Shown piece by piece: positions 2,017-58,880 of a stretch of DNA of 64,000 nt; within the stretch, counting starts at the first letter, position 1; each line of letters begins with the position of its first letter. The DNA is from Chloroflexia bacterium. GTDB lineage: Bacteria > Chloroflexota > Chloroflexia > QHBQ01 > JADMIH01. The stretch is from positions 4,295 through 68,294 of the forward strand of contig DATINP010000044.1 of NCBI GenBank assembly GCA_035474135.1. The letters run 5' to 3'. A program made the position numbers and the translations under genes. A model generated the notes under the pieces. It made no database searches, was not told where the DNA came from, and was given only the letters and a program-made list of their open reading frames with translations.

Positions 2017-3326
2017 TGGGCGCAACAGGAACGTCAAAGACGATGGTGATACAGGGCGGGAGAGAAAACCTTGTGGGAAGAGTCGAGGTGCCAGGCGACA
2101 AGTCAATCTCGCACCGGGCGACGATGCTGGGGGCGCTGGGCGAGGGTACAACGCGCATACGGAACTTCCTGCCCGCCAGCGACTGCCTGAGCACACTGGA
2201 AGTAGTGCGCGGGTTGGGAGTCGAAGTGGTGTATAGCCAGGACGAGGTGCTGGTGCGTGGGCTAGGGCTGAAGGGCTGGCGCCAACCCACGAGGTCGCTG
2301 GAGTGCGGCGGGTCGGGCACGACTATGCGTCTCATGGCGGGCCTACTGGCGGGATTGCCGTTGTACAGCATACTGGCTGGCAATACCCAATTGAGCCGTA
2401 GACCGATGGATAGGGTAGCTGTGCCCCTGCGGCAGATGGGCGCAACCATCCTCGGCGATGATGACGGCAAGTACCCGCCGTTGTCCATTCTCGGAGGCGA
2501 CCTGAGAGCGATCCGGTACGAGATGCCCATCGCCAGTGCGCAGGTGAAGTCTGCTGTTCTGCTGGCAGGACTGTTCGCGCAGGGGGTCACTTCGGTGGTA
2601 GAAGCGGCTGTCACGCGCGACCACACCGAGAGGATGCTGACCGCAATGGGCGTGCGAGTAGAGAGTGAGGCCGGCATGGTTCAGGTGCACCCGTCGCCGC
2701 ATTTGGAACCTCTGGACCTGCGCGTACCGGCGGACATGTCGTCGGCGGCGTTTCTGCTGGCAATAGCAGCAGTGGTGCCCGGTTCGCGTGTGATGGTGCC
2801 GGGCGTGGGCATTAACCCGGGCCGGGTGGGCATCTTGCACGTTCTGCGGAAGATGGGAGCCGAGGTGTGCCTTCACAACCAGCGTGTCGATGCAGGCGAA
2901 CCTGTGGCCGATATCGAGGTGAGGTATGGCACTCTCAGGGGCATTTCGATAGGGGCGGAGGACGTGCCCACAATGATAGACGAGTTGCCCGTGTTGGCGG
3001 TGATTGCGACCCAGGCCGAAGGGGTGACCGAGGTGCGGGGGGCAGCCGAATTGCGGGTAAAGGAGACCGACAGGATAGCTACCACGGTATCCGAACTGAG
3101 GCGCATGGGAGCGCGTATCGAAGCTCTGGAAGATGGGTTCGTGGTGGAAGGGCCAACGAGACTACACGGGGCACACGTCGAGAGTCACGACGACCACCGG
3201 CTTGCTATGTCGCTGGCGGTGGCGGCACTGGCGGCGAGCGGTGAAACGACGATAGAGGGCGCAGCTTGCCTTAGCGACAGCTTCCCGGGCTTTGAAGAGC
3301 AAGTTGCACAACTCATCGGTTATTGA
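2016..3326 (+). CDS. aroA: 3-phosphoshikimate 1-carboxyvinyltransferase (EPSP synthase)
   Basis: KSISHR, LGALGEGTT, GNTQLSRRPMDR, LAVIATQAEG motifs; ATG overlaps tyrA TGA (ATGA coupling); ORF-track start at 1974 is upstream of the likely start. Confidence 0.9.
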   Translation: MGATGTSKTMVIQGGRENLVGRVEVPGDKSISHRATMLGALGEGTTRIRNFLPASDCLSTLEVVRGLGVEVVYSQDEVLVRGLGLKGWRQPTRSLECGGSGTTMRLMAGLLAGLPLYSILAGNTQLSRRPMDRVAVPLRQMGATILGDDDGKYPPLSILGGDLRAIRYEMPIASAQVKSAVLLAGLFAQGVTSVVEAAVTRDHTERMLTAMGVRVESEAGMVQVHPSPHLEPLDLRVPADMSSAAFLLAIAAVVPGSRVMVPGVGINPGRVGILHVLRKMGAEVCLHNQRVDAGEPVADIEVRYGTLRGISIGAEDVPTMIDELPVLAVIATQAEGVTEVRGAAELRVKETDRIATTVSELRRMGARIEALEDGFVVEGPTRLHGAHVESHDDHRLAMSLAVAALAASGETTIEGAACLSDSFPGFEEQVAQLIGY

Positions 3327-3375: not shown

Positions 3376-3393
3376 TTTTTGTCGCGACAAAAA
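3376..3393. repeat. TTTTTGTCGCGACAAAAA perfect palindrome (copy 2)
   Basis: 18-bp perfect palindrome between aroA and aroE. Confidence 0.85.
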
Positions 3394-3394
3394 A

Positions 3395-3438
3395 GACGTA
3401 TGACGCATGACGCATGACGCATGACGCATGACGTATGA
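3395..3438. repeat. (GACGYAT)6 tandem heptamer array
   Basis: gacgtat gacgcat x4 gacgtat read directly. Confidence 0.9.
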
Positions 3439-3444
3439 GATACC

Positions 3445-4314
3445 ATGGCACCTGACGACCACCAAGACACATCAACTGTCACACATCACGTCGGCCTCAT
3501 CGGCTACCCCGTGGAGCACAGCCTGTCGCCCGCAATGCACAACGCAGCATTCACGCATTTGGGGTTGGAATACCGATATGTGCTATTGCCTACACCTCCT
3601 AGCGAGTTGGAGAGGCGCGTGAGAGAGTGCGTGGAGCGAGGGTTCGCGGGGTGGAACGTGACGGTACCCCACAAGGAGGGGATGGCACGAATGCTTGACG
3701 AGATGAGCGACGAGGTGAAGGCAACCGGCGCGTGCAACACTGTGCTGGTGGAGGGTGGCAAACTGCAGGGCTTCAATACTGACACAATAGGGTTTATACG
3801 AGGGCTAGAGGAAGCGGGCGGTATCTCGGCAGGCTCGAAGGCGGTCGTGCTGGGCGCAGGCGGGGCGGCGCGCGGCGTGGCGTGGGCATTGAGGCAAGCC
3901 GGGCACCGGGTGATTATTTTGTCGCGGAAGCCGGAGCAAGCGCGAGAGGTCGCCGAGGCTATAGGGGTAGAAGCCGGTCTGCTTGATGCGGAAACGCTAG
4001 AGGGCGAACTTGAAGTGGCGCAGCTACTCGTGAACTGCACGCCCGCGGGTATGTGGCCTCATGTGGAGGAGAGTCCTGTGCCGGACGGTGCGCGGATACC
4101 GGCAAACATGCTGGTGTACGACCTGGTGTACAGGCCAAGGCCGACATTGATGCTGCGGAAGGCGGCGGAGGCGGGCTGCCGTACGCAGAATGGGCTGGCG
4201 ATGCTGGTGTACCAGGGAGCAGCAGCGTTCGAAATATGGACGGGCCGTCCTGCCCCAATAGAGATGATGAGAAGGGCGTGCGTCAGGGGCGAGGGATTAG
4301 GGGTTAGGGGTTAG
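3445..4314 (+). CDS. aroE: shikimate dehydrogenase
   Basis: GLIGYPVEHSLSP, NVTVPHK, NTDTIGF, GAGGAARG motifs; C-terminal residues GLGVRG are encoded by the GGGGTTA heptamer repeat. Confidence 0.85.
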   Translation: MAPDDHQDTSTVTHHVGLIGYPVEHSLSPAMHNAAFTHLGLEYRYVLLPTPPSELERRVRECVERGFAGWNVTVPHKEGMARMLDEMSDEVKATGACNTVLVEGGKLQGFNTDTIGFIRGLEEAGGISAGSKAVVLGAGGAARGVAWALRQAGHRVIILSRKPEQAREVAEAIGVEAGLLDAETLEGELEVAQLLVNCTPAGMWPHVEESPVPDGARIPANMLVYDLVYRPRPTLMLRKAAEAGCRTQNGLAMLVYQGAAAFEIWTGRPAPIEMMRRACVRGEGLGVRG

Positions 4315-4368
4315 TAAGACGTCGTAAAACGCATAACTTCTAACACCTGACCCCTCACCCCTAACACC
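4287..4368. repeat. GGGGTTA-based composite inverted repeat
   Basis: ggggcgagggattaggggttaggggttag ... ctaacacctgacccctcacccctaacacc; left arm encodes the AroE C-terminus. Confidence 0.75.
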
Positions 4369-4389
4369 TACAGGAAGGATAACGCAACA

Positions 4390-5529
4390 ATGATACACAG
4401 GTTTCTTACGGGCGGAGAGTCACACGGGCCGGGGCTAACCACGATAGTGGAGGGGTTCCCGGCGGGGCTGGCATTGGACGTGGAGGCGATCAACCACGAG
4501 TTGACCCGTCGCCAAGGGGGCTATGGACGCAGCGGGCGCCAGCATATCGAGCGTGACGAGGTGCAGTTCTGGGGCGGAGTGGAGAATGGCGTCACCACAG
4601 GCGGGCCAATCGTCATGCAGATCGCCAACCGCGACTACGCCAACTTCATCAAGAAGGAGCACCCACGCCTCACCGCGCCACGGCCAGGCCACGCAGATCT
4701 CGTGGGGGCCATCAAGTATGGCTACAGCGACATGAGGACGGCGCTTGAACGCTCAAGCGCGCGGGAGACGGCGGCTCGAACAGCGACGGGCGCCCTCGCC
4801 AAGCAGTTGCTGGGGCAGTTCGGGGTGAAGGTGGGCAGTGTCGTCACAGAGATCGGGGGCGAACAGGCCGACGTGGACCTGTCGTCCCCGGAGTCGCTCC
4901 TGGAGGCCACAGAAGCCTCGCCCGTGCGGTGTCCTGATACGGAGGCCACGGAGCGAATGAAAGCGCGCATAGACTACGCCAGGCGCACCGGTGACACGTT
5001 GGGTGGGGTGTTCGTGGTGTGGGCGACAGGGCTTCCAATAGGGTTGGGAAGCTATGTGCACTGGGACCGCCGCCTCGACGGTCTGCTCGCGTGGGCGGTG
5101 ATGAGTATCCAGGCGATCAAGGGGGTGGAGATCGGCGAAGGCTTCGAGAACGCCCGCATGAACGGGCGGGACGTGCACGACCAGATTTATGTCGGCGAGC
5201 GGGGGTTGGAGAGGCACACGAACCGTGCGGGTGGGCTGGAAGGCGGCGTGACTAATGGGCAGCCGCTGATCGTGCGTGCCGCGATGAAGCCGATCTCTAC
5301 TACGATCAACCCGTTGCAGACGGTGGACGTGGCAACGGGCGAGGCGGCCAGCACGCAGTACCAGCGCTCGGACTTCTGCGCCGTGCCCGCAGCGGGCGTA
5401 GTGGGCGAGGCAATGGTGGCGTGGATACTGGCCGACGTGCTGCACGAGAAGCTGGGCGGCGACAGCCTGAGTGAGATGCGCGCACGGACGACGGACGACG
5501 GACGACCGACGACGGGCAGTGCCCGGTGA
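4390..5529 (+). CDS. aroC: chorismate synthase
   Basis: GESHGPGL, RRQGGYGRSGRQ, RPGHADL, SARETAART signatures; C-terminal TTDDGRPTTG is encoded by the left arm of a GGACGAC hairpin element. Confidence 0.9.
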   Translation: MIHRFLTGGESHGPGLTTIVEGFPAGLALDVEAINHELTRRQGGYGRSGRQHIERDEVQFWGGVENGVTTGGPIVMQIANRDYANFIKKEHPRLTAPRPGHADLVGAIKYGYSDMRTALERSSARETAARTATGALAKQLLGQFGVKVGSVVTEIGGEQADVDLSSPESLLEATEASPVRCPDTEATERMKARIDYARRTGDTLGGVFVVWATGLPIGLGSYVHWDRRLDGLLAWAVMSIQAIKGVEIGEGFENARMNGRDVHDQIYVGERGLERHTNRAGGLEGGVTNGQPLIVRAAMKPISTTINPLQTVDVATGEAASTQYQRSDFCAVPAAGVVGEAMVAWILADVLHEKLGGDSLSEMRARTTDDGRPTTGSAR

Positions 5530-5559
5530 CCAGCAGGCGTCGTCCGTCGTCCGTCGTCC
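5484..5559. repeat. (GGACGAC)n / (GTCGTCC)n hairpin element spanning the aroC-aroK junction
   Basis: Left arm acggacgacggacgacggacgaccgacgacgg, 22-nt loop, right arm cgtcgtccgtcgtccgtcgtcc. Confidence 0.85.
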
Positions 5560-6086
5560 GTCGTCCTACCAGGAATCTGGTGCTGGTAGGATTTATGGGC
5601 ACTGGCAAGACTACTGTGGGCGCGCTTGTGGCCGAGCGGCTGGGGTGGTCGTTCGTGGATACGGACGCACTGGTCAAGGTAGCGACGGGGATGTCCGTAG
5701 CCGAGATCTTCGCGACGCAAGGAGAGGTCGCGTTCCGAGCGCTGGAGAGAGAGGCGTGCCGGGAGGCAAGCGCACGCCAACACGTCGTTATAAGCGTGGG
5801 AGGCGGAGCCGTGATGGACCCGGAGAACAGGCGTGCGCTTGAAGCGAGCGGGATGCTTGTGCTGTTGACGTGCGAGCGCGACAGGCTGATCGAGCGATTG
5901 GAGGAGTCTGTGCGCCGAGGCGAGCGGCCCCTGCTTACCGGCGACATTGGGAAACGTATAGACACACTCGCCGCGAGCCGGGCGCAGGTGTATGGGTCAA
6001 TCGCGATGAAGGTGGACACTACGAGGCTGACGCCGGAAGAGGTTGTAGAGATTTTGGTCAGGGATTGTAACCCTTTACTCTCGTAA
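5526..6086 (+). CDS. aroK: shikimate kinase
   Basis: Walker A GFMGTGKTT and shikimate-kinase core; GTG start overlaps aroC stop; N-terminal [11 protein letters not shown] is encoded by the right arm of the hairpin element, so the true start is uncertain. Confidence 0.8.
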   Translation: MTSRRRPSSVVRRPTRNLVLVGFMGTGKTTVGALVAERLGWSFVDTDALVKVATGMSVAEIFATQGEVAFRALEREACREASARQHVVISVGGGAVMDPENRRALEASGMLVLLTCERDRLIERLEESVRRGERPLLTGDIGKRIDTLAASRAQVYGSIAMKVDTTRLTPEEVVEILVRDCNPLLS

Positions 6087-6097
6087 AAGGAAGCATT

Positions 6098-7234
6098 ATG
6101 CAGGACATACAAGCCGACACTATTCGAGTGCAGACGCTCGATGGAGGGTACGATATCGTGCTGGGGAACGGATTGCTTGAAAGTGTGGGAAGGCTGGCGA
6201 GCAAGTTGGGGCTGGGCCGGAGGGTGGTGGTCGCCAGCGACACAAATGTGGCTCCTCTGTATGCCGAGCGAGCTATCCAGCCGCTGAAAGGCGCTGGTTT
6301 CGACGCTACACTGGCGGTTATGCCTGCTGGCGAGAAGCATAAGCGGTGGCCGTCGGTCGAGATGTTCGTGGAGTCCTTTCTGGACGCTGGCCTCGACCGG
6401 GGAGGTTGGGTGGCGGCGCTGGGCGGGGGCGTGGTGGGCGACACTGCCGGGTTCGCCGCATCTGTCTACATGCGCGGGGTGGACTTTGTACAACTGCCAA
6501 CCAGCCTGCTGGCTATGGCCGATTCGAGCATCGGGGGCAAAGTGGGCGTGGACCACGAGCGTGGCAAGAACCTGCTTGGCGCGTTCAAACAGCCCCGACT
6601 GGTGGTGGCCGACCTGGACGTGCTGGCGACCCTGCCACAGAAAGAGGTCGCGTGCGGCATGGCCGAGGTGATCAAGGCAGAGGTGATAGGGGGAATTGAC
6701 GACGGACGACGGACGACAGACGACAGCAATCGACTAACGTCCTCGGTCGTCCGTCGTCCGTCGTCCGTCGTCTCTCCTACGATCTACGACTCGCTGCGCC
6801 GGGCTATCGAAGTGAAGCGAGGGATCGTGGAGCGCGACCCGCACGAGGCGGGGGAGAGGGCGCTGCTGAACCTGGGTCATACGTTCGGGCACGCTTTCGA
6901 GAAATGCACAGGGTATAATAGGCCTCACGGCTACGCGGTGGCGCAGGGGATGGTAGTGGCGTGCAGGCTGGCGGCGGCGCTCGGTATGTGCGACGAGGGG
7001 TTGGCTGAGAGCGTTGAGCGCGCGCTCGCAGCGTGGGACCTGCCCATCAGGTGGGGTGCGCCCGATCTTGAGGACGAGGGTGCTGTGGAGCGCGTGTGGG
7101 AGGCGATGAGGCTGGACAAGAAGCGCGTGGACGGGAGATTACGCTTGGTTTTGCCGGAGGCAATTGGCAGGGTGTGCATTGTTGACGATGCGCCCGAAGT
7201 TGTTATCAAGAGGGTATTGAGGGAGACGAAGTGA
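6098..7234 (+). CDS. aroB: 3-dehydroquinate synthase (carries an in-frame palindromic-repeat insertion)
   Basis: DHQS motifs [27 protein letters not shown]; residues DDGRRTTDD...[11 protein letters not shown] (nt 6698-6772) are encoded by a perfect heptamer hairpin element. Confidence 0.85.
6698..6772. repeat. (GGACGAC)n / (GTCGTCC)n perfect hairpin element inside aroB
   Basis: gacgacggacgacggacgacagacgac - 21-nt loop - gtcgtccgtcgtccgtcgtccgtcgtc; 75 nt, a multiple of 3. Confidence 0.9.
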
Positions 7235-7235
7235 A

Positions 7236-7703
7236 ATGGAGCTGAAGGACGACCGGAACGGGCGCACGAGGCTGCTGGTGCTGCACGGGCCGAACCTCAA
7301 TCTACTCGGGCTACGCGAACCGCACATCTACGGCACGCTGAGCCTGCCCGAAATAAACAGCGCGCTGAAGGAACAGGCAGCAGAAAATAAAGTGGAATTG
7401 CGGATTGTGCAGTCGAACCACGAGGGCGCGCTGATTGACGAGATACACTCGGCCAGAGATTGGGCAGCGGGGATATTGATCAACGCGGGCGCGTACACGC
7501 ACACCAGCTATGCCCTGCGCGATGCGATCTCGGCGGTGGGCCTACCCACGGTGGAGGTGCACCTGTCGAACATTTACGCGCGTGAGGAGTTCCGGCATCA
7601 CTCAGTGCTGGCAGCGGTGTGCAATGGGCAGATTTCGGGCTTCGGACAGGACAGCTACCTGCTGGGGTTGCAGGCGTTGTTAGGTGTAATTGACAGGCAA
7701 TAG
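7236..7703 (+). CDS. aroQ: 3-dehydroquinate dehydratase, type II
   Basis: [20 protein letters not shown] and [14 protein letters not shown] signatures. Confidence 0.9.
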
Positions 7704-17058: not shown

Positions 17059-18762
17059 CTATGTGATCTTCGGTACTGAGCGGCGCAGACACGCGAAGAA
17101 GTAGGCCATTTTATTCGTCAGGCCTATCGCGCCGTGCTTGCCCTGTCCTTCGCGCGTGGTACGCTTCGCAGTGTACATGAGGTCCACGAACGCCTCGGCT
17201 TGCAGCCCCGACGTGCGCCATAACCGCATTGCTTGGCCTACATTTTCCAGCACGTGATCAGCATCTCCCAGTTCGTATGAGAAGTCTGCAACTACCCTCG
17301 AGATAAAGGGCGAATAGGCCGGGTCGCGAGCTTCTCCGGGTTCGTTCCCAGAAGCCTTTTTGACCAAGTTATGACTCGAGTCAGCCTTCATAATTTGTTC
17401 TGGATGATCTGCTTCTATTTCGTGTTCACCGCGCGTCACCGGGGGCTGTGCACTGCCTGTCATGGGACGCGGTGTCTTCCGCTTTACAGGGGCTAGCAAC
17501 TGCGCGTCACCTGGGCGTGCATACTGTACGTCGTTGGGGCCTGTCAACTGTGCGTCACTACCCACCTTATACTGTACGTCACTGGTGGCAATAAACTGGG
17601 TGTCACCGGGAAGAGGATACTGTATGTCACCAGGGGGTGTATACTGCGCGTCACCGGGATGCGCATACCCGCCGTCACGACCCATTGTATGTATCTGTGC
17701 GCCTGCACGGTCGCGTCGAGCCTGTGCCGCGAGGCTGCCGCGACGGGCTTTCTTGACTGGAAGGGTCGTGCTTGCTTCCTGCAAAGCTCCTGCTGTAGCG
17801 TCGGCTTCTGTGTCGTCTCCGGTTGGGGTTTGTCCGTTCTTCCCCGGTTTGAGCAGGTTGCGGATCTCGTCCAAGAGGGGGCTGAAGTCGTAGGCGTTCG
17901 AGTCTTGCCCGCCGTCGCTCTTGGTGCGGCGTACCAGCCGAAGCGAGCCGCGCTCGACCAGTCCCGTCTTGATGCGGTGCAGATAGGCGGCTGTGTAACC
18001 CGTCTGCAAGGCCATACGCACTATGCTGGGATAGGGCAGGGATGTGTCCCACTGGTATGAGAAAATGTAGGCCACGAACCACACCTGCTGTGGGGTCATG
18101 TCCAGTTCTTTACTGTATGTAAACAGGGCGCGTGGCACCGCTGCCACTCCGTAGCGGGTCAGTACCCTGCCGTAGCGGGCCACAAAGCTTGGGTCGTGCT
18201 GGGCGCGCTCGATCTCTTCGATGCCGCGCTCGTACCCGTTCTCATGCCCGTTGCGTTGGGGGAAATCTGGGACGCGTGTGGGGTCGTAAATCGAGCTTAT
18301 GGGATTGCTGTTGATCCTGCTTTTGACGTGCTCGGTAATGCACGATTCGAGCCTCTCGAACAGGGCGGCGAAGTCGTAGTAGTTCGACTCTTGCCCGCGC
18401 TCCTGCGACCTCCTGGGCAGGACCAGCAGGTAGCCCATGCCCTGTAGCTCGTCGCTGTATCGTTGTAACTGCCTCTTGCTCATGCCCGATGCGCGGGACA
18501 TCACGCCCAGGCTGGGGTAGGGGAGGTCTTCGTCCCATTTATGTGACAGGATGTAGGAGATGAACCATACATGCTGGGCGTAGAGGTCGAGCTTACCACC
18601 GAAGTGGTACAGCGCCGACGGCAGGGCCGCGATCCCGTGTTGCAGGATCACTCTGCCGAAACGCGCCGCGAAGCTATTGCCTGTCCCGGCAAAGGTGCCC
18701 GGGTTGACCTCTATATCGCCGTTTTGTCCTACCCTGCCCCTCTGTTCTATATTTTTGGGCAT
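17059..18762 (-). CDS. putative replication-initiator-like DNA-binding protein with tandem winged-helix domains and an octapeptide repeat
   Basis: Two roughly 110-aa paralogous domains (ARFGRVILQHGIAALP... and ARYGRVLTRYGVAAVP..., each ending SN.YDF); 8 x (xGDxQYxx) repeat; GGAGG RBS 8 nt upstream of ATG at 18762. Confidence 0.45.
   Translation of the reverse strand: MPKNIEQRGRVGQNGDIEVNPGTFAGTGNSFAARFGRVILQHGIAALPSALYHFGGKLDLYAQHVWFISYILSHKWDEDLPYPSLGVMSRASGMSKRQLQRYSDELQGMGYLLVLPRRSQERGQESNYYDFAALFERLESCITEHVKSRINSNPISSIYDPTRVPDFPQRNGHENGYERGIEEIERAQHDPSFVARYGRVLTRYGVAAVPRALFTYSKELDMTPQQVWFVAYIFSYQWDTSLPYPSIVRMALQTGYTAAYLHRIKTGLVERGSLRLVRRTKSDGGQDSNAYDFSPLLDEIRNLLKPGKNGQTPTGDDTEADATAGALQEASTTLPVKKARRGSLAAQARRDRAGAQIHTMGRDGGYAHPGDAQYTPPGDIQYPLPGDTQFIATSDVQYKVGSDAQLTGPNDVQYARPGDAQLLAPVKRKTPRPMTGSAQPPVTRGEHEIEADHPEQIMKADSSHNLVKKASGNEPGEARDPAYSPFISRVVADFSYELGDADHVLENVGQAMRLWRTSGLQAEAFVDLMYTAKRTTREGQGKHGAIGLTNKMAYFFACLRRSVPKIT
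17487..17680. repeat. 8 x 24-bp tandem repeat inside the Rep-like gene (iteron-like; encodes xGDxQYxx)
   Basis: Each unit ends ACTG(Y)(R)(Y)GTCAC with exact 24-bp period (GTCAC ends at 17510, 17534, ... 17678). Confidence 0.8.
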
Positions 18763-18781
18763 AGAAAACCTCCTGTACCCC

Positions 18782-18810
18782 TTGACAGGAGGATGGCCCG
18801 GTGCTACAAT
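18782..18810 (+). promoter_or_regulatory. consensus sigma70-type promoter (TTGACA-17-TACAAT)
   Basis: TTGACA 18782-18787, 17-nt spacer, TACAAT 18805-18810; points away from the Rep-like gene. Confidence 0.55.
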
Positions 18811-18816
18811 GCTTTT

Positions 18817-18909
18817 GAGCATACATTGTGCCGGTGATCCTCCTCCCAAGAGGGCCACACCGACGGAATCTTCAAAGCCTGACTGTTACCAGCAGTCGGG
18901 TTTTTATTT
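18817..18909 (+). ncRNA. putative small RNA of about 90 nt (promoter plus terminator defined), divergent from the Rep-like gene
   Basis: Consensus promoter at 18782-18810 and an 8-bp-stem hairpin followed by TTTTTATTT at 18878-18909; no ORF in between. Confidence 0.4.
18878..18909 (+). terminator. rho-independent terminator
   Basis: CCTGACTG/CAGTCGGG stem (one G-U pair), 7-nt loop, then TTTTTATTT. Confidence 0.6.
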
Positions 18910-51902: not shown

Positions 51903-51920
51903 GTTTGTATCTCCAGGAGT

Positions 51921-52043
51921 GGGTGATCGGTGACCGGTGAGCGGTGACCAGGGACCAGTGACCAGTGACCAGTGACCAGGGTTAGTAGGACAACAGATGA
52001 CGTATCACGTATCACTACTGGCCACTGGTCACTGGTCACTCAC
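51921..52043. repeat. (GTGACCR)n / (TGGTCAC)n long hairpin element
   Basis: About 8 GTGACC-type heptamers at 51921-51979, 40-nt centre, (CTGGTCA)3 at 52019-52043. Confidence 0.85.
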
Positions 52044-58789: not shown

Positions 58790-58880
58790 TAGGTCGTGCG
58801 TCATGAGTAATTCTCTTTTGTCGCGACAAAAGAGCGCCTAGCTTATACAGAACAAGTTCTCATGACATATGACGTATGGC
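58790..58880. repeat. composite: GACGCAT-type units flanking a perfect 22-bp palindrome CTCTTTTGTCGCGACAAAAGAG
   Basis: Palindrome at 58813-58834; flanks cgtcatgag ... ctcatgacatatgacgtatg. Confidence 0.85.

Follow-up and report, generated by a model that had tools for sequence, protein, structure and literature searches.

The cyanobacterial heptamer repeats known as STRR were reportedly described by Mazel et al. in 1990, and the Rickettsia palindromic elements (RPE), which are said to be 100–150 bp long with a conserved full-length consensus, by Ogata et al. in 2000. In classical cases of translational coupling across overlapping stop and start codons, the overlap is accompanied by modest RNA structure involving the Shine-Dalgarno (SD) site. 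Here, we compare with such systems a hairpin built from 7-nt repeats that spans the junction of aroC and aroK, encoding chorismate synthase and shikimate kinase, in 64,000 nucleotides of DNA from a Chloroflexia bacterium (GenBank assembly GCA_035474135.1, contig DATINP010000044.1, positions 4,295–68,294 of the forward strand). This whole stretch is referred to as the window, and coordinates are counted from its first letter.

Heptamer units recorded in other bacteria include GGGAATC in Xanthomonas and GGGGAYT in Nostoc (PMC4692102) and TAACTGA in Beggiatoaceae (PMC4679880). Heptamer repeats are under-represented in coding sequences (PMC4692102), and stop codons within a unit limit the overlap of an array with coding sequence (PMC4679880). 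The literature on heptamer repeats and Chloroflexi yielded no in-frame heptamer hairpins in Chloroflexi, only the heptamer satellites, (GATAGRA)n, of Chloroflexus aurantiacus (PMC6749651). RPE are mentioned in PMC1779305, and the extragenic REP/REPIN repeats are treated in PMC3116915.

We consider it probable that the aroC/aroK hairpin belongs to a lineage-wide population of tandem arrays with 7-nt units, mostly arranged as inverted pairs, which fill spacers and overrun gene ends. On this account the AroC tail was overwritten, the right arm was added after the aroK start, aroK is translated mainly from a GTG codon in the loop at position 5526, and the hairpin is tolerated rather than evolved as a regulator.

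Results

A heptamer hairpin brackets the aroC stop codon and a candidate aroK start

A repeat finder located an inverted repeat with 29-nt arms at 5486–5514 and 5538–5566 on the forward strand, 97% complementary and 23 nt apart, containing a core of 23 nt with full complementarity (5484–5506 and 5539–5561). Tandem Repeats Finder resolved both arms as period-7 arrays, (ACGGACG) × 4.6 with 92% matches at 5484–5515 and (CGTCGTC) × 4.1 with 100% matches at 5538–5566; the letters at 5484–5566 are ACGGACGACGGACGACGGACGACCGACGACGG-GCAGTGCCCGGTGACCAGCAGG-CGTCGTCCGTCGTCCGTCGTCCGTCGTCC. The left arm is (GGACGAC)n with one variant unit, GACCGAC, and encodes TTDDGRPTT of AroC in the sole possible aroC frame. 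The right arm is (GTCGTCC)n and reads RRPSSVVRR(P) in the aroK frame. Between them, the 23-nt loop GGGCAGTGCCCGGTGACCAGCAGG (5515–5537), which has three substitutions in the relative designated L208, holds the aroC stop codon and an in-frame GTG: the two overlap as GTGA at 5526–5529, with the TGA of aroC (5527–5529) lying on the candidate GTG start of aroK (5526–5528). The same overlap is found in the relatives designated L003 and L125 and in L208.

The predicted RNA fold of 5470–5580 has a free energy of −68.6 kcal/mol, compared with −47.4 ± 3.8 kcal/mol for shuffled sequences (z −5.66); none of 200 shuffles was as stable. With up to one mismatch, the 14-mer GGACGACGGACGAC matches the window 14 times against 0.03 expected from shuffles. 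Since the hairpin is also present in independent assemblies of the close relatives L208, L207 and L206, an assembly artefact is excluded. A sequence-only reading of this DNA had placed a hairpin at 5484–5559, with the left arm encoding the AroC terminus and the aroK GTG overlapping the aroC stop within the loop. The inverted-repeat, tandem-array and fold analyses bear out the hairpin, its location and this arrangement, with one correction: the right arm extends 7 nt further, to 5566.

Three independent metagenome contigs of close relatives begin inside or just 3′ of the right arm (L001, positions 1–10; L206, 1–60; L207, 1–30), and L206 opens with about 50 nt of poly-C/G junk. The hairpin evidently breaks short-read assemblies.

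Pfam assigns the surrounding operon to aroE (3445–4314), aroC (4390–5529), aroK (5526–6086), aroB (6098–7234) and aroQ (7236–7703), with aroC and aroK on the forward strand and in agreement with the names given to these two before any database search. AroC (379 aa, 100% identical to GenBank HST03627.1) matches PF01264 Chorismate_synt over residues 4–350 with an E value of 1.5e-115; its final 16 residues, nine of which come from the left arm, lie outside the domain. In its long form of 186 aa, AroK matches PF01202 SKI (E 1.2e-42), and residues 1–16 are hairpin-encoded or flanking. An antisense open frame of 416 aa (5306–6556, minus strand) runs opposite aroK and aroB through both this hairpin and a second one in aroB described below; it is almost certainly a GC-rich artefact, although an ORF picker working by length selected it.

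The junction in relatives

The aroC/aroK junction takes three states among relatives. In the first, a plain overlap, AroC of L003 (AroK 79% identical to that of the window) ends in LERYTTLPSGVRTEAAR with GTGA, after which AroK begins MNLVLVGFMG, and AroC of L125 (94% identical) ends in LERFATLPGAVRAEVGA with GTGA, followed by VSSGSDKKEKQNLVLAG. Both genomes carry strong SD sites within the AroC tail (−9.5 and −10.3 kcal/mol, respectively), and that tail has the form LERY/FxTLP... In the second state (L002 and L124), a spacer of about 70–170 nt, depending on the aroK start, separates the genes and contains other repeats and a TTGTCGCGACAA palindrome. The third state, the GGACGAC hairpin, is seen in the window and its closest relatives: a contig from JGI 3300048101 encoding the proteins P0122 (AroC) and P0243 (AroK), L208, L207 and L206. 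The contrast between the plain junction of L003 and L125 and the hairpin of the window group indicates that the hairpin was gained once this group had separated from L125-like genomes.

The AroC homologues compared, about 50 from Chloroflexia, finish with EM[RLQ]ER[FY]xxL plus about ten residues. The repeat-encoded tail RARTT(D/G)D(G/R)RPTTGSAR occurs among them only in the window AroC and the 97%-identical P0122. Judged by sequence, this comparison shows that AroC gained a new, repeat-encoded tail in place of its native one, with the length nearly kept (16 aa versus 17 aa). Between fixed flanks the window is 42 nt longer than L003, equivalent to six heptamers or 14 codons, AroC having one codon fewer and AroK 15 more. 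The sequence-only reading had proposed that an element inserted at the junction and that both genes took new termini, and would have counted AroC orthologues with the same tail but lacking the repeats against it. The opposite was found, the orthologues having a different tail. The AroC half of the proposal is thereby upheld and the AroK half is plausible, but simple insertion is too simple a description: the copies share heptamer arms without the loop, the AroC tail kept its length and the arrays form a genome-wide population.

Whereas AroC of L125 is 94% identical to that of the window, the adjacent AroK is only 70% identical, a contrast that suggests recombination, or strongly unequal rates, inside a single operon. 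An AroK-based metagenome scan for further junctions returned, among the matches listed, only relatives with 49% identity or less.

Heptamer arrays occur throughout the window

More than 20 period-7 arrays with at least 12 different units occur in the 64 kb, nearly all in spacers between open reading frames (ORFs), as judged from a crude ORF map, and there are few spacers in the window that lack one. The units include GACGCAT, AGGGGTT, GAGTTCT, GTCGGTC, GATCTAA, GTGACCA and ACGTATC. An array of (GACGCAT) × 6 (3393–3445, forward strand) lies immediately 5′ of the aroE start, and the palindrome TTTTTGTCGCGACAAAAAA (3376–3394) comes just before the array. Inverted array pairs are found at 4292/4340, in the aroE–aroC spacer, and at 51920/52012; the aroE–aroC spacer of L125 offers a nested example, in which (GTGACCA)n, (GGACGAC)n and a central TTTTTGTCGCGACAAAAAA palindrome are followed by the complementary arrays. 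Membership of the junction hairpin in this genome-wide class argues that it is not a one-off regulatory device.

The arrays also overrun gene ends. AroE of the window, L002 and L125 diverges directly after a conserved MR(Q/R)AC. In the window, the hairpin at 4292–4370 (forward strand), formed by AGGGGTT units and their approximate complement, supplies the last ~7 aroE codons and the stop: 4292–4314 reads ...RGEGLGVRG and stop. GTGACCA units at positions 60–80 of L125 likewise yield ...VTSDQ and stop. Array-supplied AroE ends are counted in up to three genomes, among them the window and L125.

Several other repeats were noted. Spacers beside heptamer arrays repeatedly contain the perfect palindrome TTTT(T)GTCGCGACAAAA(A), both in the window (3376–3394 and 58815–58832) and in related Chloroflexia contigs (three sites in L004; L124, 113–132; L125, 109–128; L002, ~3222–3249). 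Its two occurrences in the window compare with 0.01 expected; the palindrome may be bound by a protein or may have seeded these hairpins. The large hairpin at 51920–52040, between two minus-strand ORFs, pairs (GTGACCA) × 7 with (ACTGGTC) × 3.4 and carries (ACGTATC)2 in its loop. A 24-nt tandem repeat of about three copies with 70% matches (17595–17668), within the long minus-strand ORF 17059–18858, is unrelated to the heptamer arrays. We considered the 18-mer ACGGACGACCGACGACGG, shared with the aroE–aroC spacer of L125, as a sign of copying between sites and rejected it, since the alternation of GGACGAC and CGACGAC is common in unrelated Chloroflexota loci.

A stop-free unit in coding sequences

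Among 13 units seen, only GGACGAC and the variant GTCGGTC lack stop codons in all six frames. Because 7 and 3 are coprime, a heptamer array yields one 7-residue cyclic peptide in all three frames of a strand: for GGACGAC this is GRRTTDD whichever forward frame is read, and VVRRPSS in all reverse frames. A unit that is stop-free both ways makes a hairpin readable through both arms, which explains why GGACGAC alone sits within ORFs of the window, where its hairpins, at the aroC/aroK junction and in aroB, are the only ones so placed.

We scanned one genome per species for (GGACGAC)3, recovering at least 120 loci, and judged the phylum from record titles. Chloroflexota metagenome-assembled genomes (MAGs) made up about 55 of 120 matches listed, some 19 of them from a single MAG, while other phyla usually contributed single matches. 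Of the 82 arrays in the Chloroflexota loci listed, 33 stand in a frame without stops for at least 50 codons in both directions, and DDGRRTTDD-type segments occur within long ORFs. Pfam identified seven array-bearing Chloroflexota ORFs as MnmG, GltB (glutamate synthase), LigA (NAD-dependent DNA ligase), peptidase S9, MutS2, Obg and TrpE (anthranilate synthase I); three of these (LigA, peptidase S9 and TrpE) hold arrays in both orientations and hence hairpins. The entry of GGACGAC into housekeeping genes, in frame, thus appears to be a lineage-wide pattern. A search with the peptide (TTDDGRR)6 returned almost exclusively ORFs below 75 aa, annotated as hypothetical over arrays, and was uninformative for long proteins.

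A second hairpin within aroB

The second GGACGAC hairpin (approximately 6697–6773, forward strand) lies in frame within aroB and folds with −66.4 kcal/mol (z −6.0). Its loop, AGCAATCGACTAACGTCCTCG, is unrelated to that of the junction, so that only the heptamer arms are common to the two copies. The segment aligns with approximately residues 200–225 of the dehydroquinate synthase (DHQS) structure 5eks at about equal length, which indicates replacement of a segment. Equivalent positions in L001, L002 and L003 carry other heptamers (CGTCATG, TACGATC), with the frame kept each time. Across the regions compared (window, 6695–6790; L001, 1124–1190; L002, ~4460–4540; L003, ~1690–1770), the site holds the GGACGAC hairpin, (CGTCATG)4 or (TACGATC)n. 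This internal site is a hot spot of repeat turnover within an enzyme. The aroB copy also shows that a hairpin of this sort can be translated through.

Candidate start sites of aroK

The AlphaFold2 model of the long form of AroK has a mean pLDDT of 91.7. Residues 1–16 form low-confidence coil (mean of 51 for residues 1–10) and are predicted to be disordered, and the first strand, β1, comprises residues 17–22, NLVLVG. From GTG 5526 the protein would read MTSR-[RRPSSVVRR]-PTRNLVLVG, with the N-terminal peptide MTSRRRPSSVVR; the flanks of this tail, MTSR...PTRN, resemble the MSR(T/R)(S/T)PNLVLAG N-termini of more distant relatives. The JGI gene call for P0243 has the same 186-aa form, and GTGA is kept in the plain-junction and hairpin relatives compared.

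The deposited AroK (HST03628.1, P0241; 163 aa, MGTGKTT...) starts at ATG 5595–5597 on the forward strand, and not upstream of the true start as the sequence-only reading had supposed, in its second alternative, of the annotation: the codon lies downstream of the hairpin. A start here (M24) would delete the whole of strand β1, which comes before the P-loop, and is not credible. Several metagenome gene calls repeat this type of error because their contigs begin inside the hairpin.

The most serious alternative to our account is that the right arm is untranslated and AroK starts at GTG 5580, the hairpin being an RNA structure between the cistrons or at the 3′ end of aroC. Such a structure could set the aroC:aroK ratio by blocking re-initiation, by keeping 3′ exonucleases away from the upstream mRNA, or by offering RNase III a site whose cleavage releases an aroK-aroB-aroQ transcript. 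The site, at 5571–5582 on the forward strand, consists of AGGA (5571–5574), a 5-nt spacing and GTG 5580, giving MLVGFMGTGK... It lies 5–14 nt 3′ of the stem base and is kept in L001, L206, L207 and L208, while the ancestral SD before the loop GTG has been lost and a loop start flanked by a −68 kcal/mol stem would be unreachable de novo. A near-perfect 29-bp duplex is, from general knowledge, long enough for RNase III. However, starting at GTG 5580 (V19) would drop N17 and L18 and replace V19 of the six-residue β1 strand, and none of the 28 homologues with a complete 5′ end starts so late, the shortest beginning MNLVL, at the N of NLVLVG. The AGGA duplex with the anti-SD sequence, at −4.3 kcal/mol, is matched by about 38% of random positions. 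Moreover, ribosomes must read through the aroB hairpin, which argues that stems of this sort do not block translation, and an RNase III cut in the stem would also take away the aroC stop codon. We regard this alternative, taken as a whole, as possible but doubtful. For the start codon itself, we lean towards coupled re-initiation at GTG 5526; GTG 5580 is the less probable site, and both starts may be used. The earlier suggestion that the right arm encodes the AroK N-terminus is thus right as to the frame, and translation of the arm is plausible.

Changes in the paired arms

In L208 the left arm is identical to that of the window, whereas three substitutions separate the right arms: 5545 C>G repairs the lone C:C mismatch, and 5552 C>A and 5557 T>C create mismatches. 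The hairpin still folds with −62.8 kcal/mol (z −3.7). The P0122/P0243 contig encodes the same AroK N-terminus as L208, and its AroC tail differs from that of the window by D to G at the 5495 codon and G to R at the 5500 codon. The proline-to-arginine change in AroK implies, from the protein, that 5545 C>G heals the single C:C mismatch here too. D to G in AroC and V to A in AroK are changes of the second codon position, which makes 5495 A>G and 5557 T>C certain from protein alone. These two positions pair, so A:T has become G:C in P0122/P0243, via an A:C state such as that of L208. Both changes alter an amino acid, which suggests that pairing may matter more than the peptide; with one compensated pair, deduced from protein sequence, constraint on pairing is suggestive only.

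An account of the junction

The ancestral GTGA overlap of aroC and aroK left no spacer, so that an array pair at this junction had to lie in coding sequence, and only GGACGAC/GTCGTCC, stop-free in six frames, could have settled there. After the split from the plain-junction relatives, the left arm overwrote about ten codons of a dispensable AroC C-terminal tail, the right arm would have added 9–15 codons just 3′ of the aroK start, and the ancestral SD, GGAGG, was lost as the hairpin was gained. A ribosome that terminates at the overlapping aroC stop has melted the 29-bp stem whose loop would otherwise keep the start out of reach, and could re-initiate at GTG 5526. AroK output would then be tightly coupled to AroC translation, and AroK would carry a disordered, basic N-terminal tail. 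Such tight coupling is probably a side effect of the repeat, as would be any influence on mRNA stability or processing. We assume neutrality: most likely the hairpin is selfish or neutral sequence, tolerated rather than evolved as a regulator.

Several observations weigh against this account. The SD of the 5526 site is weak, its anti-SD duplex amounting to −5.0 kcal/mol in the window and −2.8 kcal/mol in L208, and GTG 5580 with its AGGA, lying outside the stem, could be used as well or instead. The open aroK frame across the right arm proves little, since the arm is stop-free in every frame and GTG 5526 had a one-in-three chance of being in frame. When the loop is compared with the ancestral junction and, as its other possible source, with an internal part of the ancestral AroC tail, two alternative alignments to L003 score similarly and L125 aligns poorly. 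Divergence between the window and L208 (3/29 in the right arm, 0/29 in the left arm and 3/23 in the loop) is overall not below that of the flanks (~8%), and two new mismatches in L208 indicate that any constraint on pairing is weak.

Other explanations for the hairpin

We think it improbable that the hairpin is a discrete miniature mobile element, of the miniature inverted-repeat transposable element (MITE), REPIN or RPE type, inserted whole at the junction and in aroB and moved by a transposase encoded elsewhere. Two copies with the same arms do lie within 1.2 kb, many GGACGAC copies occur in Chloroflexota genomes, some of them inside genes, and the arms could serve as terminal inverted repeats. 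Short direct repeats, ACCAGCAGG and ACCAGG, are also present, but they bracket the right arm alone, and no target-site duplication is seen around the whole hairpin, alignment to empty sites being ambiguous. Unrelated loops in the two copies, and loop lengths that range elsewhere from about 15 to more than 90 nt, sit poorly with a unit that moves intact, and the near-original length of the AroC tail and of the aroB segment argues for replacement rather than pure insertion. Neighbouring spacers carry many different heptamers, which does not suit a sequence-specific transposase, and the orthologous aroB sites of relatives hold other heptamers.

A phase-variation switch, in which gain or loss of one 7-nt unit in an arm shifts the frame and turns AroC or AroK on or off, is very improbable. 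Because 7 is not divisible by 3, a single-unit change causes a frameshift, and tandem arrays are known to be prone to slippage (PMC4692102, PMC4679880). Yet each arm has only about four units, the affected genes are housekeeping or essential (aroC, aroK, aroB, obg, ligA, mnmG), and arm lengths are equal in the window and L208 and, as deduced from protein termini, in P0122/P0243; L207 and L206 hold a partial right arm.

Equally remote is a role in terminating or attenuating transcription between the two genes: for all the stability of the GC-rich stem, a scan for intrinsic terminators found no site at 5484–5580, the sequence 3′ of the stem (CUACCAGGAAUCUGG / CTACCAGGAATCTGG) has no U tract, the same hairpin stands inside aroB, and no Rfam 15 family reached its gathering threshold, the sub-threshold matches all being generic miRNA-precursor hairpin models (for example, 27.8 bits against a threshold of 79). 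A promoter scan found no promoter-like site at the junction.

Discussion

Given a unit that is stop-free in every frame, simple intergenic repeats can come to occupy the ends of proteins, segments at their surface and even the overlap of a stop and a start codon, which provides a testable filter on the selfish or slippage-born sequences able to enter genes. Gene callers misplace starts at such sites, as the GenBank AroK, short by a whole β-strand, illustrates; spurious short "hypothetical proteins" are called over arrays and assemblies break at hairpins. The locus would also lend itself to work on how ribosomes and coupled translation handle 29-bp GC-rich stems.

A more far-reaching possibility, which we offer as speculation and think unlikely, is that Chloroflexota harbour selfish DNA of an undescribed class whose members enter coding sequence. 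Each would be an inverted pair of a six-frame stop-free heptamer, encoding the same cyclic peptide in every frame, and such pairs would have spread or been copied into housekeeping genes and overlaps (aroC/aroK, aroB, mnmG, ligA, obg, trpE, gltB, mutS2). Compensatory change or intrastrand repair would keep the hairpins, and on mRNA these would be switches that depend on translation: only a fall in ribosome traffic would let them form and set off processing or decay.

Of the described systems, the heptamer simple sequence repeats (SSRs) share with the junction hairpin their 7-nt units, short tandem arrays (2–7 copies) at many loci per genome and at gene boundaries, fast turnover of length and sequence between close relatives, and an occasional inverted stem-loop arrangement. 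The hairpin has three or more head-to-tail 7-nt units (≥~3 being the measure of the class) and belongs to a set of dispersed arrays. Unlike that class, which is reported as intergenic, the array pair here lies in two ORFs and again in a third, its unit is stop-free in six frames, inverted pairing is the rule in the window, and many units stand side by side in an uncultured Chloroflexia host. STRR repeats proper differ further in their cyanobacterial host and their STRR1–3 units, compared with the GGACGAC unit of a Chloroflexia MAG.

REP/REPIN sequences resemble the hairpin as short dispersed hairpin repeats, often in inverted pairs, that can affect the stability of operon mRNA. They are, however, extragenic, with a consensus of 20–40 nt and a tie to a RAYT gene (PMC3116915), in contrast to the intragenic junction hairpin and the tandem heptamers of many sequences described here.

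As in gene pairs coupled through ATGA or GTGA overlaps, the overlap here (5526–5529) is conserved with and without the hairpin, and the start sits within a structure that would be opened only by a ribosome translating upstream. The difference from the classical arrangement is that the overlap is flanked by the two strands of a 29-bp stem derived from repeats, and that the SD is lost; the case here is known from sequence alone. The aroC/aroK case is notable in that both arms bracket the stop/start overlap.

RPE and the hairpins described here are alike in being palindromic repeats, present in many copies per genome, that lie in frame in protein-coding genes, including housekeeping genes, and leave the ORF open while supplying an extra peptide segment where it is tolerated, apparently at the surface: aroC, aroK and aroB are intact with full Pfam domains, and seven Chloroflexota housekeeping genes carry in-frame arrays. 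RPE conserve a full-length consensus, whereas here only the low-complexity heptamer arms are common and the loops are locus-specific, differing in length and sequence both between the window copies and elsewhere. RPE add sequence, whereas the copies here replace host sequence of about equal length, and one straddles a stop/start overlap. If the wider pattern holds, Chloroflexota would provide a second, independent and mechanistically different example of Rickettsia-type palindromic repeats making new peptide segments in essential enzymes.

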